Assembly: GCF_006345805.1 (NCBI RefSeq)
Contig: NC_042997.1
Coordinates: forward strand, 85,312,001 to 85,376,000
DNA length: 64,000 nt
DNA from: Octopus sinensis
Taxonomy: Eukaryota
Direction: 5' to 3'
Under the pieces are notes generated by a model. The model saw only the letters and a program-made list of their open reading frames with translations, did no database searches and was not told where the DNA came from. The translations under genes were made by a program, and so were the position numbers. Numbering within the stretch: the first letter of the stretch is position 1; the number at the start of each line of letters is the position of its first letter. Positions 42-49,913 of the stretch are shown here, piece by piece.

Positions 42-240
42 CAACAAGATTAGCGTTTACGGTAAATTCGAAGTTTCGGTCTGCTTAGCTTTATTGGCTG
101 TGAAGAAATCTAATGAAGGCAAAGCAGGCCGAAACTTCGAAATCACAGTCAACACTATTCTTGTTGAAAAATAATAACTATGTAGTTTACAAAAAGTATT
201 GAGTAAATCTAGCAGTTTAACATAAAATTGTTTTTATTAT
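42..240. mobile_element. Degenerate fold-back element with minimal hammerhead-like motif (Penelope-like pLTR remnant)
   Basis: Imperfect inverted repeat 42-166 (ttcgaagtttcggtctgctt / aagcaggccgaaacttcgaa). The + arm reads CTAATGA-A-GGC-aaagcag-GCC-GAAAC-TTC (110-138), the PLE minimal hammerhead layout with a G5>A change. Abuts (GT)n. Confidence 0.55.
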
Positions 241-254
241 AACCAGACATAATG

Positions 255-465
255 GGACCAGCTGGTAGAATCGTCACCGCGCCGGGCAAAATGCTTAACG
301 GCATTTCTTCCAGCTATAAATTCTGAGTTCAAATTCTATCGAAGTCGACATTGCCTGCCATCGTTTTGGGATCGGTAAACTAAGTTTGAATACTGGAATC
401 CATTTAGTCGACTAGATCCCGTCACACCAAATTTCAGTTCTTGTGCCTATAGTAGAAAGGATTAT
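255..465 (+). mobile_element. tRNA-derived SINE, family A
   Basis: A-box-like gctggtagaa, B-box gagttcaaattc, body similar to the 44517 copy, tail ttgtgcctatagtagaaaggatta. Confidence 0.75.
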
Positions 466-639
466 AACTCGACATATGAGTAACAATATATAAACAGCCG
501 AAATTTGCCATGATGAATCGGTTTCTGACTGAAGAATGAAGGCTCTGAATTACTGTCCGTTTTTCCGTGTTTGTCAATTCGTGAATTTCACGTCCTTTAT
601 ATATAAGTTTTATTATATATATATAAACATACATATGTG

Positions 640-840
640 TATTGTATACCACCCACTGCTTGATAACTGGTGTTGATTTATTTACGGACCTGTAACTTGC
701 AGTTTTCCCAAAAAGCACGATAGAATATGAACCAGACTTAAAAAATAAGTACTGGAGTCGTTTTGCTCGAGTAAACCTTTTACGACAGTGCTCCAGCATG
801 ACCTCAGTCCAATGACTGAAACAAGTAAAAGATAAAAGAA
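640..840 (+). mobile_element. SINE family B, 3' half
   Basis: Ends gtgctccagcatg...cagtccaatgactgaaacaagtaaaagataaaaga, a tail repeated many times in the window (e.g. 9600-9670, 17075-17165, 35045-35235, 37320-37540). Confidence 0.7.
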
Positions 841-949
841 GATGTTGTAGGAATAGCTTCCAAACAAAATACTTAAAGGAATGAAGAATTTCTTTAACGG
901 CATATTCATTCCAGGTTTGTTAAAATAACGCTGTTTCATTTAACACCAG

Positions 950-1700
950 ATTAAGACATCTTTAATATCAGGGCAAGATGAATGCTATCTTCAGAGTTCA
1001 ACTGAATCCTGTACTTTATTTATAAAATATCAGCGATTATTAAAGGAGACGTCAAAATGTTGATAAGAATTATAATGGCTCAATTTTCAATTTCACAAGA
1101 ATTAATATGGATCAATTTTCAATTTCACAAGTATTAGAATGGAGAAATATAAACAGCCAACCATGGTAACATAAAATAACATATGAGCTAAATTAATATA
1201 ACAGTTTAATGAAGCTGAGGGAATTTCATTCAAAACAACCCCTCTTTAGGTTTTGGGGAAAGTGATACTGTTTCACTTTTCATATAGGGCTTTTTTCATG
1301 TCAGAGCAACTTGGTTGCTTCCTTCAAGGTCAAAATGATTTCTTTTCTTTGTTTTCAAGTTCTTAAATGTAAAACACCCTTTTCTACAATAGTGGATCGT
1401 CGCAAAAGGCAACAGCATTACTGTTGCTCTCACATGTATAGTTTTAAAGTTTTCACAGCTTCTAACATACAGGAAAGATGATATATTTGCCATCTCCTAA
1501 AATCCCATCAGATTTTTCAGACACATCAGCCATTTGTAAGTTTAATGGATTTTCATCTCTATTAACAATTTTTGAATTAAACCATGGGAATTTATCAAAG
1601 TGCTGCTGTATAAGTTTAATAGGATGCTTCATAACAAATCCCTTGACGTCACCAAGACTAATATCTTGATAGTCTTTTCAAAACTTTGGTTTAATCCAGA
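950..1700 (-). pseudogene. hAT (Buster/Charlie-like) transposase C-terminal remnant
   Basis: Minus translation LLPFATIHYCRKGCFTFKNLKTKKRNHFDLEGSNQVAL resembles the hAT dimerization motif LLPFxTxYxCExGFS...KTKxRNxL. A second KYRIQLNSEDSIHLAL-like piece lies near 970-1020. Confidence 0.55.
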
Positions 1701-2344
1701 AACTTTTGATCTCTTGCTGAAACGATATTAAATTTTTTTTCTTGCAATACTTTTTTCATTGAAATTACAAGATCAACATATTTATTAGCTACTTATGAAA
1801 AATGTATGCGTGCCAGCCAAATGGCCTTACTGAACTCATCTACAGGAGCATTTTTTGAACCACCAGTTGTCAGAATTTGAAAAATTATAAAATATAATGA
1901 TGAGAACATGTTATTTGTCTCTAAATTATATGTTAATGTTATGGTGCGGTTACTGATGATAATTTCGCCTACCAAATTATTTTTTTGCAAAATAAAATTT
2001 GAAACCTAGGTATAACCGTAAAAAAATAACAAGGTAAAAGTTTTTATTTTTCATTCACTTCGAAATTGCTCTTAAATGTGGTTTTGGTCGTTTTGACTGC
2101 TTCTTCGAGCGTGTAAAACTACCTGTTTAAGGTAGTCTCTCTTGTGTTTAAATGTACACTATTTTATATATATATATACATGTATGTATATATATATATA
2201 TACATGTATGTATATATATATATATATATATAATATATATATATATATATATATATAATATATATATATATATATATATATATATATATAATTATATACA
2301 TGTTTATATATATCTATATGTACATATATATATATACATGTATG

Positions 2345-2684
2345 TGAATGAATTATCTTAGTATTGATAATTCGGTTAATCGATACCTGGGTAGCAAATT
2401 CACGTCAGAAGACACGGTTGAAGCTGCATGCCAAGGGCAGAAACCCCGTGTTCTTGTGTGGTAATTTGTGTGTTTTTTTTATATGAATAAATGAAAGAAT
2501 GGAGTCGAACGAAGATTTTATCAAAATTCCTTTACTCTCGACATATGTTTCGAAGACTGCATACTCTTAATTCCGAAGGAATAAAGGGTGCATTAACTCT
2601 TCGGAATTAAGTGTATGCAGTCTTCGAAACATATGTTGAGAGTAAAGGAATTTTGATAAAATCTTCGTTCGACTCCATTCTTTC
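2345..2684. mobile_element. Fold-back PLE-like element (86-bp arms) with left-only extension
   Basis: Arms 2493-2578 and 2599-2684 (2 mismatches, 20-nt spacer) carry the hammerhead 3' half GAAAC-ATAT-GT(C/T). The left extension 2345-2492 is homologous to 48680-48830. Flanked by (TA)n. Confidence 0.75.
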
Positions 2685-47384: not shown

Positions 47385-47389
47385 ATATA

Positions 47390-47720
47390 TTCTTTTAATT
47401 GTTTCAGTCATTTGACTCTAGGACGTATTCTTTGTAGGCTTAGTCACTTATCCTATCGGTCGCTTTTGCCGAACCACTAAGTTATGGAGACGTAAACACA
47501 CCAGCATCGGTTGTCAAGCGATGTTGGGGAAACATATACATACGTATATATATATACATATACATATATACAACGAGCTTCTTTCAGTTTCCGTCTACCA
47601 AATCCACTTACAAGGCTTTGGTGGGCCCGCGTCTATAGTAGAAGACACTTGCCCAAGGTGCCATGGAACCATGTGGTTGGTAAGCAAACTACTTTCCACA
47701 CAGCCACTCCTACGCCTATA
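47390..47720 (-). mobile_element. SINE family B
   Basis: Collinear with 56985-57455. Confidence 0.8.
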
Positions 47721-47869
47721 CACACACACACACAATATATATATATAATATATATATTATATATATATATATATTATATATATATATATATATATATATA
47801 TATTATATATATATATATATATATATATATATATATATACGCCTATATATACATATATATATATATCTG

Positions 47870-48352
47870 GCTGTTGACCGGAGTGCTACTAAAACTTTCT
47901 TTCAGCTCGTGCTTTCAACAAGCATACATCGACTTCTCTGTCTTTCGCAAGCCGATTTTTCACATGCGTTCTAACTAATTTTTCCACCGTCTAGGCCTAA
48001 AAAAAGCCCTTATTGTTGGTTTCCTTGTCCTGTTATTCATTATTTGTACTGTTTTTTCTTCATTTGTATTGTTTTTACGTCCTGTTCTTGTCACTTGTTT
48101 TACCCCTCTGCAAAAGAATTTTATTTAATTCCTTTTGCAGGAAGGATTGTTTCGGCCAGGCCGTGTTCTGCCCTTACCTTCGAAACACGCATTGAGTCGA
48201 ACCAGGGGCAGCTGATGAAGGGGAATTTTCCTTGTATTGTTTGTCCTGTACTCTGTTTTTTCGTTGTTAAAAAAAGTCCGTTTCCTTGTTTGATTTTATG
48301 TTTTCGTTTCTCGTTGTGTTCTACCTTTATTTGTGGTGTCCTGTACTCATAT
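47870..48352 (+). mobile_element. Dispersed repeat in (TA)n, possibly a PLE-like tail
   Basis: cgaaacacgc...ctgatgaagggg...gtcctgtactcatata resembles 55961-56135 and, weakly, 7820-7945. Confidence 0.4.
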
Positions 48353-48874
48353 ATACATATATATATATATATATATATATATATATATATATATATATAT
48401 ATATATATATATATATATATACATGTATATATACATATAGATGTAAGAATGTACATATATGTATGTATATATGCATATGTTTTATTTATTTATTATATTG
48501 TTATTATATGACCGAACGCACGCGTTGTTTCTCTTCTCTAAGTAAGTTTTTATTTATATATATATATATATGTATATATATATATATATATATATATATA
48601 TATATATATATATATATATATATATATATATATATATATATAATATATATATATATATTATGTGAAATAGAAAGATGAATAATCTTGTAGTAGATTAATC
48701 AAAAGTTTAACCGATACCTTAGTAGCAAAAATCACAGCAGTGAACAGCACGGTTGGAGGTACAACCATCTGGCGTTGCAACCGTGCGTTGGTGCGGATAA
48801 TTGAAATTAAAACATTATTGGTGAATTGAAGAAATGGAGCTGAACGCAGATTGAACAGAAATCGTTTTATTTCA

Positions 48875-48954
48875 TTCTACACGTGTTTCGAAAGGCACAA
48901 ATTACCAAAATCCGATTGAATAATGGGACCATATTGTGTCTTTCTCTTCAGGAA
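48875..48954 (-). ncRNA. Mirror copy of the hammerhead ribozyme
   Basis: Exact reverse complement of 49647-49726. Confidence 0.75.
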
Positions 48955-49646
48955 GAAAAAAGGAAATCCGTTGGAAAAACAAAAACAGAACAGAGGCAGA
49001 GCAAAAAACAAATCGAACTGTGCTCCTAAGAGCCCATGGCGAAACTGTTTATCAGTGTATGTTGAGAACCGGTGGCTGAAGAATTCAACAGGTCAGGCAT
49101 CGGTCAACCATGTGGGTGAGGGTGTATAGATGTTCTTTGTGACCGATAATAAAGTTCTGACTATTTAAAGAATATTGGATGTTTTATAAGGGGCGAGAAA
49201 AAATCTACTTAGAGACGTGTGTGTGTGTATACTGTTCTATATATGTGTGTGTTGGCGTAGGGGTAGAAAACATTTTTTGTGTACGTGTGTGCGTTTGATC
49301 GATCAAACGCACACACGTACACAAAAAATGTTTTCTACCCCTACGCCAACACACACATATATAGAACAGTATACACACACACACGTCTCTAAGTAGATTT
49401 TTTCTCGCCCCTTATAAAACATCCAATATTCTTTAAATAGTCAGAACTTTATTATCGGTCACAAAGAACATCTATACACCCTCACCCACATGGTTGACCG
49501 ATGCCTGACCTGTTGAATTCTTCAGCCACCGGTTCTCAACATACACTGATAAACAGTTTCGCCATGGGCTCTTAGGAGCACAGTTCGATTTGTTTTTTGC
49601 TCTGCCTCTGTTCTGTTTTTGTTTTTCCAACGGATTTCCTTTTTTC

Positions 49647-49726
49647 TTCCTGAAGAGAAAGACACAATATGGTCCCATTATTCAATCGGATTTTGGTAAT
49701 TTGTGCCTTTCGAAACACGTGTAGAA
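49647..49726 (+). ncRNA. Type I hammerhead ribozyme (PLE-type)
   Basis: TTC-CTGAAGA-[gaaagacacaa/ttgtgcctttc stem II, 10 of 11 pairs]-GAAA-CACGTG-TA-GAA. Intact core, palindromic stem III (ACACGTGT), GUA cleavage triplet ending at 49723, 3-bp stem I. Confidence 0.75.
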
Positions 49727-49913
49727 TGAAATAAAACGATTTCTGTTCAATCTGCGTTCAGCTCCATTTCTTCAATTCACCAATAATATATATATATATA
49801 TATATATATATATATATATATATATACATGTATACATATATACATACATAAGTATATATATATATATAAGTGGAGTTTAATTGTTAACAAGGGAAAATAC
49901 ACACATATATATA

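Follow-up and report, generated by a model that had tools for sequence, protein, structure and literature searches.

What gives a single stretch of octopus DNA five near-palindromes, each drawn out on one side only and most of them set against a microsatellite? The question is posed by a 64,000-nt stretch of the Octopus sinensis genome (C1:85312001-85376000 of the 2.72-Gb assembly; hereafter, the window), in which an earlier reading of the letters (the original prediction) had proposed five fold-back elements derived from several lineages of Penelope-like retroelements (PLEs). All five were found (elements 1 to 5, Table 1), and they lie far beyond chance: in a control of 30 first-order Markov simulations of the window (non-microsatellite inverted repeats, spacer ≤100 nt), the longest exact inverted repeat averaged 11 nt, with a maximum of 14. 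We conclude, with a probability of roughly 0.87, that the fold-backs are 5'-truncated insertions, set in (TA)n or (GT)n, of PLEs or of short non-autonomous elements derived from them, and that each is likely the product of one double-primed integration event.

Each fold-back is a member of its own dispersed repeat family (families 1 to 5, or F1 to F5, after the elements). We searched the genome using the extension plus one arm of each fold-back as the query and scored 40 matches per family. Family 5 returned 1672 first-look candidates (scored matches 99%-100% identical), family 2 returned 2996 (93%-97%), family 3 returned 519 (95%-97%), family 4 returned 609 (74%-82%), and family 1 returned 287 (70%-92%). 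The arms had been taken to differ in age, and divergence between arms inside the window does follow the age of the family. Element 5 (48660-49787) is the youngest of the five and constitutes the 3' end of a 3641-nt element; its arms of 487 nt are 100% complementary with 0 nt between them (0 differences at 488 positions).

One-sided extensions (tails) are likewise present on all five elements. Since the extension is co-linear with the arm in other genomic copies (elements 2 to 5), it belongs to the element. The tail of element 2 is homologous to the family 5 tail, and the 3' ends of families 2 and 5 align; the tail of element 3 begins at an internal ATATATA patch, and a tail of ~150 nt follows the hammerhead ribozyme motif (see below) in 10 of 11 other family 4 loci. 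Anchoring in microsatellites held for 8 of the 10 outer ends, each with a dinucleotide repeat of ≥12 nt no more than 30 nt away (of all positions in the window, 9.6% have one no more than 20 nt away). It failed for the right ends of element 1 (448 nt to a repeat) and element 4 (2772 nt). The distance at the right end of element 1 means that its extension is not anchored, and it is the tail-less arm that abuts (GT)n instead. In element 2, the tail-less end lies at a TA-like patch, with (TA)n from 2691. The spacer of element 4 is partly self-complementary too.

Table 1. Positions of the five fold-back elements and their associated features (window coordinates)
Feature	Position	Strand	Remarks
(GT)n microsatellite	1-37		Beside the tail-less arm of element 1, with a 7-nt gap; read directly
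Element 1 (F1) fold-back, old	42-166		102/134 aligned columns self-complementary (76%); one degenerate hammerhead per arm, outward
Element 1 tail	about 167-200	+	Kept in several other F1 copies (flank comparison, 10 loci); far end approximate
Element 2 tail, 3'-terminal 142 nt of F2	2345-2486	- (sense)	Comes after (TA)n at 2160-2344; tail and arm co-linear in 40/40 scored matches
Element 2 fold-back	2487-2690		Arms 2487-2578 and 2599-2690, 92 nt, 96% complementary; 20-nt spacer
Element 3 tail (F3)	15003-15089 (~87 nt)	-	Preceded by (TA)n; query positions 4-186 co-linear in 40 scored matches
Element 3 fold-back	15090-15292		15083-15300 self-complementary at 206/214 aligned columns; non-autonomous family with a 510-nt unit
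Element 4 tail (F4)	24593-24740 (148 nt)	-	Preceded by (TA)n at 24540-24592
Element 4 fold-back	24741-24998		Arms 24741-24829 and 24910-24998, 89 nt, 94% complementary; 80-nt spacer
Element 5 tail, 3'-terminal 154 nt of the 3641-nt F5 element	48660-48813	-	Stem-loop at unit positions 90-129; (TA)n to the left
Element 5 left arm	48814-49300	- (sense)	Unit positions 155-644
Complete type I hammerhead, element 5 left arm	48878-48951	-	Descriptor match
Element 5 right arm, inverted, tail-less	49301-49787	+	Stops at unit position 157, directly against (TA)n
Complete type I hammerhead, element 5 right arm	49650-49723	+	CUGAAGA, long helix II, GAAAC-ACGU-GUA

The manner of insertion was read from family 5, with one natural unit serving as the ruler (position 1 is the element 3' end on the sense strand). 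In a first sample of 19 loci of this family, three were simple 5' truncations and 16 had an inverted partner. All 12 loci with both outer ends visible paired an end at position 1-4 with an end at position 151-159, and in each the tail lay on one side only. One outer end is therefore the true 3' end, whereas the other lies ~150 nt inside the element, where the sequence is TA-like, and this offset gives rise to the tail on one side. The inner end shifted by a few bases between copies (TTTTA/TATA, AATGTT/ATAT, AATAAT/ATAT, and CCAATA/TATA), the element sequence being TA-like there in every case, and tail-less ends on TA-like patches also occur in families 2 and 3. Arm-arm junctions showed either 0-8 nt of overlap or 10-15 nt of filler. 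The arms within a fold-back differed less from each other than, on average, from the arms of other loci (13/13 cases), as is expected if both arms were made in one event.

This pairing of end points extends well beyond the first sample. Genome-wide, 599 exact 25-mers joined position 151 to (TA)n and 1245 were internal, running across the same point, while reversed-pattern controls gave 0 for both counts. On contig C1, a tail-bearing copy in fold-back orientation lay within 12 kb of 28 of the 53 inner-start ends (spans of 113-4806 nt, 10/28 being ≤600 nt). We fetched 16 of the other 25 (loci L122-L137), 15 of which abut a short inverted arm starting at position 1-6; overall, an inverted partner accompanied 43 of the 44 inner-start ends examined on this contig. 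Almost all of the 16 fetched loci were under 1.3 kb, and for family 5 these sizes agree with the claim that such lineages leave mostly tiny hairpins. Many of the C1 pairs do not overlap (e.g., positions 1-88 joined to 151-298), and hence a palindrome results only in the particular case of two arms of sufficient length to overlap. In 6 of the 16 fetched loci, the terminal-primed arm stops at position 87-91, which is the foot of a stem-loop (positions 90-129); its folding is supported in family 5 (z -2.55) as well as in family 2 (z -2.71). The stop at this point looks like a pause or block for the enzyme.

Taken together, the end points suggest a course of events in which both repeat strands would be cut by the endonuclease. 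Of the two 3'-OH groups, one would then prime at the RNA 3' end and the second at the internal TA-like patch, which lies immediately upstream of the conserved stem-loop. Both cDNAs would stop short and be joined head to head, such that the overlap of the two would form the palindrome and the stretch between the two start sites would form the one-sided tail. In the twin priming of long interspersed element-1 (LINE-1), reportedly described by Ostertag and Kazazian in 2001, the second target 3'-OH is likewise said to prime internally, yielding an inverted 5' segment and a direct 3' segment. The 0-8 nt of junction microhomology found here is a point of likeness, and the non-overlapping C1 pairs look just like LINE-1 twin-priming products; in contrast, the octopus arms often overlap fully, giving palindromes, and their inner site is fixed rather than variable. 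A full-text literature search, judged by titles and abstracts, returned no paper applying twin priming to PLEs.

Biochemical work on PAc (Poseidon, Anolis) offers a second comparison. This reconstituted element cleaves and extends both strands in vitro, and two internal start sites bound its tail (Frangieh et al. 2024, PMC11167929), in agreement with the mechanism proposed above; a stem-loop and AT-rich targets are further common features. The systems differ in that the two octopus sites are found on opposite arms, with the inner one almost never alone, whereas no strand difference was seen in vitro. We tentatively suggest that double priming is ordered, the inner site being used only on the second strand and after priming at the RNA 3' end, because inner-start ends practically never occur alone (43/44) and 6/16 arms stop at the stem-loop foot. 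Under the same tentative scheme, some hairpins (e.g., family 1) would have become retrotransposing units, and microhomology between target and RNA, not a zinc finger, may set the target, given that a family without linker cysteines (described below) still resides in (TA)n. It is possible, though less likely than not, that these genomic traces preserve an order of priming hidden from the in vitro experiments.

Fold points differ between copies in families 5, 2, and 3. In family 1, however, the fold point was identical in all seven copies with both arms (among the window copy and L072-L081) and fell at a decayed CUGAUGA box, so the hairpin itself seems to have been copied as a unit instead of forming anew at each insertion. 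Near-symmetric fold-backs, with 0-7 nt at the centre, were found at L002 (the window locus), L011, L014, L033, and L126. Such fold-backs occur more often than truncations arising independently would produce, which may point to snap-back synthesis or run-off at one RNA end. Palindromic microhomology was considered as a source of the symmetric junctions and is unsupported, as the fold points of L014 and L033 do not coincide with any matching inverted repeat in the unit. We also rejected a rule by which the tail-bearing arm would never be the shorter one (9/9 asymmetric fold-backs). That rule arose from ascertainment bias, since the query spanned positions 1-641 only; in the unbiased C1 sample, most loci have the tail on their shorter arm, and L039 (family 2) is another exception. 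A model built on the rule, with two enzymes copying a single RNA and displacing strands as they do so, was withdrawn with it.

For the perfect 487-nt palindrome of element 5, and for that one only, an assembly artefact is possible, such as a chimeric long read that turned back on itself. Its lack of spacer and of any difference between the arms (0/488 positions) would fit such an error, and the contigs of four public runs do not visibly bridge 49300/49301, where the loose ends continue as the longer element. We nevertheless regard this explanation as unlikely. Many other loci have this architecture, with different fold points and with arms that have diverged, and short-read contigs of independent runs contain at least 48 other fold-back joints of family 5. 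Moreover, owing to the youth of the family, even arms from separate loci differ by 0-3 positions in this region, and both outer ends of element 5 are exactly where other copies end.

Palindromes could also arise at the DNA level after an ordinary insertion, through template switching or hairpins at unstable (TA)n. The repeat is self-complementary, microsatellites are very dense here (15-21 per 10 kb), and near-symmetric junctions with a unique centre of 0-7 nt do occur. An origin of this kind is nonetheless highly improbable, because flanking unique DNA is included in no fold-back and many pairs lack overlap, leaving no duplication of a resident copy; in addition, the outer ends are fixed at two family-specific positions while the inner ones are variable, as 5' truncation characteristically leaves them. 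Although near-palindromes at TA-rich insertion sites resemble Stowaway-type miniature inverted-repeat transposable elements (MITEs), TA-targeting DNA transposons bounded by long terminal inverted repeats can be set aside here, as the original prediction had also argued, since the termini are not mutual inverted repeats (position 1 versus 151-159, with an extra 85-155 nt on one side; target-site duplications are unreadable inside microsatellites), fold points vary between copies in families 5, 2, and 3, and the arms run on into reverse-transcriptase and putative endonuclease coding sequence and head-to-tail tandems.

PLE insertion by double priming is also in keeping with the ribozymes carried by these families. 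Full or partial hammerhead motifs reading outward had been proposed for four of the five fold-backs, and this was upheld: the motif is complete in element 5, reduced to its 3' half in each arm of element 2, present in both halves but altered by a mutated GAAA box in each arm of element 4 (CUGAAGA boxes at 24927 (+) and 24812 (-)), and degenerate in element 1. Element 3 has none because it folded downstream of the hammerhead of its family. Our descriptor required a CUGANGA box, helix II of ≥3 bp with ≤90 nt between the core boxes, a GAAA box, a short helix III, UH at the cleavage site, and ≥5/7 pairs in helix I, and it allowed one optional base between positions 9 and 10.1, as described in PMC4209133. 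It matched three times in the window, twice in the outward-reading arms of element 5 and once at 5124-5201, compared with an expectation of 0.055 matches per window (200 simulations), or 0.14 with the optional base (100 simulations). Complete copies also lie at the homologous position in relatives from families 2, 3, and 4.

Other members of the families preserve more of the motif than the window copies do. The motif of the right arm of element 5 was present in every arm at all 33 family 5 loci scanned. By the descriptor, a complete hammerhead occurred in 10 of 11 other family 2 loci and in 7 of 11 family 3 loci, the latter in copies whose arms reach further in than those of the window copy. 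In family 4, 2/11 loci matched (L060 and L065, with an intact motif) and 10/11 had the 3' half, whereas most family 1 copies retain GAAAC-UUCGAA-GUC plus a decayed 5' box. Helices I and II are paired from different sequences in different families, including a C-G to U-A change at pair 10.3-11.3 in family 3. Helix III consists across families of C, a short palindromic loop, and G, and 29-86 nt separate the core boxes. Thermodynamic folds give a three-way junction for families 2, 3, and 4 (z -3.3, -1.7, and -2.6, respectively), but no distinct one for family 5. Judged from these motifs, the 3' region of four families (5, 2, 3, and 4) carries putative hammerheads. Paired hammerheads on opposite strands, 100-700 bp apart, have been reported previously (PMC4209133).

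The third descriptor match, at 5124-5201 (+), is a complete motif (CUGAAGA, long helix II, GAAAC-AUAU-GUA) beside (GT)n at ~5236-5333. Its 3' side runs ~35 nt into the (GT)n. With no match to any of families 1 to 5, it has the appearance of a simple insertion, not folded back, from yet another lineage. Hammerhead cleavage was also considered as the step that sets the tail-less end and was rejected for families 5 and 2, as cleavage in family 5 would fall at ~217 and the arm ends at 151-159. Element 4 alone ends at a predicted cleavage site: its tail-less right arm (24982-24998) stops 1-2 nt from it and abuts unrelated sequence, with no microsatellite. All other family 4 copies examined (L059-L068) have a tail of ~150 nt where this arm stops. 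In this single case, either a self-cleaved RNA may have been copied or the insertion may have been truncated afterwards.

The window contains no Penelope-like coding sequence according to tblastn, consistent with the predicted lack of coding capacity. Extending the arms outward, as the original prediction had proposed, led to an element with a reverse transcriptase and a putative GIY-YIG endonuclease for family 5 and to GIY-YIG remnants for family 2. The family 5 parent is a 3641-nt unit found as exact head-to-tail tandems in L024, L028, and L029 (L032 also has a tandem). It contains one long reading frame, on the strand opposite to the unit coordinate system, which starts with MELFEIDASLKDIPIPP...RIRWL followed by DKT, continues through the reverse-transcriptase motifs FDIASFYPSI, PMGSSDS, YRDDCLF, and FLDV, and ends with a putative GIY-YIG block and then CNLC..E..N..CPH. 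Reverse-transcriptase motifs 2, 4, 5, and 7 could be recognised in frames of this family. The C-terminal GIY-YIG block (VYQCKV..TYIGAS..R..NH) aligns with homologues and with the published Hydra alignment.

Homologues of the family 5 protein numbered 35 at E ≤ 0.001, with Octopus sinensis and O. bimaculoides as the sources of the closest named proteins, and RWK, DKT, CxCX5C, and CxxC/CxH were read in the 14 of these 35 that were aligned. The best Protein Data Bank (PDB) match of an AlphaFold model of homologue P0012 (predicted local distance difference test score 86.3) was the telomerase TERT (3du5_A, E 4.2e-9), followed by other reverse transcriptases. Neighbours in the Atlas carry RVT_1, HTH_animal, DUF8422, and GIY-YIG, with PF01541 in 26%-77% of cluster members. 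The single open reading frame of family 5 therefore has a telomerase-like reverse transcriptase by motif reading and by the P0012 fold match, to which the Pfam profile RVT_1 is silent.

These features direct attention to the Hydra clade of PLEs (Craig et al. 2021, PMC8557442), which is distinguished by DKT in place of DKG, RWK, no CCHH, CxxC/CxH, and the linker CxCX5C. Family 5 has QSDKTRN, RIRWL (RWK in homologues), and CNLCVSE...N...CPH, and by motifs other than the linker it is predicted to be of the Hydra-clade type. The two have in common a C-terminal GIY-YIG block (putative in family 5), DKT, RW(K/L), CxxC plus CxH around conserved E and N, insertion in (TA)n, a hammerhead with a CUGAAGAG core, and a divergent reverse transcriptase that standard profiles miss. 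The same source lists Hydra-1_Obim of Octopus bimaculoides as a 2507-bp element with (TA)n preference and "no pLTR" (pseudo-long terminal repeat). In contrast to it, family 5 is 3641 nt long (typical Hydra elements being under 3 kb), forms tandems, and has an N-terminus that is roughly 35%-40% alike in a comparison by eye. In contrast to the clade as there described, family 5 carries a low-complexity insert of ~90 amino acids and lacks the linker CxCX5C cysteines, which are present in the 14 aligned homologues.

The change in the linker was observed at L024:1166-3043 (-), where CxCX5C is replaced by NLSSSQGVPTRG and three cysteines are lost (alignment columns 691-712). Copies of the family, which has gained the ~90-amino-acid insert, are still 99%-100% alike and lie in (TA)n. 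The linker has been proposed in print to set the (TA)n preference. A cysteine-less family in (TA)n would sit uneasily with this idea, unless the protein of another element mobilises family 5.

In family 2, three copies have GIY-YIG coding remnants whose endonuclease is 52%-54% identical to that of family 5. Family 3 has a non-coding 510-nt unit; L056 contains a head-to-tail tandem of it, and the arms of the L049 copy measure 251 nt. In its non-coding nature, single type I hammerhead, and head-to-tail tandems, this unit resembles what is reported of the animal non-long terminal repeat retrozymes (PMC7229834; bioRxiv 10.64898/2026.07.22.740005). It differs from them in that it also makes tailed fold-backs in (TA)n.

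Several observations weigh against the interpretation of the fold-backs as double-primed PLE insertions. Tails of 85-155 nt exceed the 30-40 bp of the PAc literature, and the internal start in octopus is TA-like and resembles the target, whereas the in vitro start sites are not homologous to it. The priming steps are themselves inferred from end points. For the ribozymes, the family 5 hammerhead fold is as stable as shuffled sequence (z 0.02), and half-motifs in arms within the window are barely enriched (4 versus 1.8 expected), so that the partial motifs of elements 1, 2, and 4 draw on homology to complete copies. Rfam detected no hammerhead at gathering score in the window, nor any even at E ≤ 10 in L024 or among the best 150 of 263 matches of a further scan, probably because the long helix II and 2-bp helix III defeat its models. 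On the protein side, Pfam, NCBIfam, and PDB-sequence profile searches gave no reverse-transcriptase or GIY-YIG match for the octopus frames or their homologues, and the assignment consequently rests on motifs, the fold match, and Atlas neighbours. None of five full-length family 5 units has an uninterrupted frame, the breaks falling at different places, and a claim of autonomy is therefore not supported. A coding parent was found for none of families 1, 3, and 4.

The results nonetheless support the original prediction as essentially right in its interpretation, including its claim of several PLE lineages, as there are five families in addition to other hammerhead types in neighbouring DNA. 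The insertion pattern itself had been described before for this class of elements. Inverted 5'-truncated copies, the tail, and the (TA)n preference have been published for PLEs (PMC8557442), and the inverted partners (16/19 and 15/16 loci), one-sided tails (12/12), and tandems found here are general features of such elements. The architecture, (TA)n preference, hammerheads, and opposite-strand pairs are in print (PMC8557442, PMC4209133), as is two-site initiation (PMC11167929). New are the particular families, the length of the tails, the TA-like character of the inner site, the fact that the two end points almost always come as a pair, and the cysteine-less linker family in (TA)n, all of which refine a known kind of element. 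That a reading of raw sequence alone recognised the insertion signature of PLEs is itself of interest. The octopus repeat catalogue gains young, abundant Hydra-type families and a 510-nt non-autonomous family, and hundreds of natural end points (599 exact internal-start junctions in one family) bear on an unsettled integration mechanism. The hairpins and ribozymes are invisible to Rfam and Pfam, and they are a source of trouble for assemblers and for predictors of microRNAs and hairpins.

To gauge abundance, we sampled 400 kb of arbitrarily chosen sequence, taking a 10-kb stretch at 10 Mb and another at 20 Mb from each of contigs C1-C20 (forty stretches). The descriptor found seven hammerheads in this sample versus about 0.9 expected, and 14 fold-backs were picked from 81 alignment rows (arms ≥58 nt, ≥83% complementarity). 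Four to six of the 14 have the tail-plus-microsatellite architecture, a density of ~1/5 of that in the window; the high density originally claimed thus held in order of magnitude, though not at the level of the window itself. These counts suggest roughly 27,000-40,000 such elements genome-wide, with a wide error. None of the 14 belongs to the five families, and more lineages must accordingly exist.

The window also holds inverted repeats at 36176-36530, 53629-54030, and 54334-55132 without the tail-plus-microsatellite architecture, and the five fold-backs are therefore the subset with a common architecture and not every palindrome present. Inspected by eye, the first appears to consist of a short interspersed repeat present twice in opposite orientations, and the third appears to enclose mariner-like sequence. 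Just left of element 5, a repeat of ~480 nt (47871-48350) lies between two (TA)n tracts; it has CUGAUGA and GAAAC boxes in an order unfit for a hammerhead, and a similar stretch occurs in L041. A Helitron to the right of element 4, suggested by likeness to the eye, was dropped after nine reading frames gave no Pfam match.

Rfam microRNA models, among them mir-5014, mir-297, and mir-3149, register scores over the centre of the palindrome and over microsatellites, for example at window positions 49243-49358, 55821-55944, and 30447-30520, with E down to 7e-19 but under the gathering scores, and several arms scored microRNA-like among the best 150 of 263 matches of the Rfam scan. These matches are hairpin look-alikes and not microRNA genes. 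Finally, L053 contains four fold-backs in a row within 1.3 kb (L053:1132-2446; 1132-1325, 1353-1604, 1753-2020, and 2153-2446) beside an endonuclease coding remnant, where one microsatellite tract has apparently been hit repeatedly.

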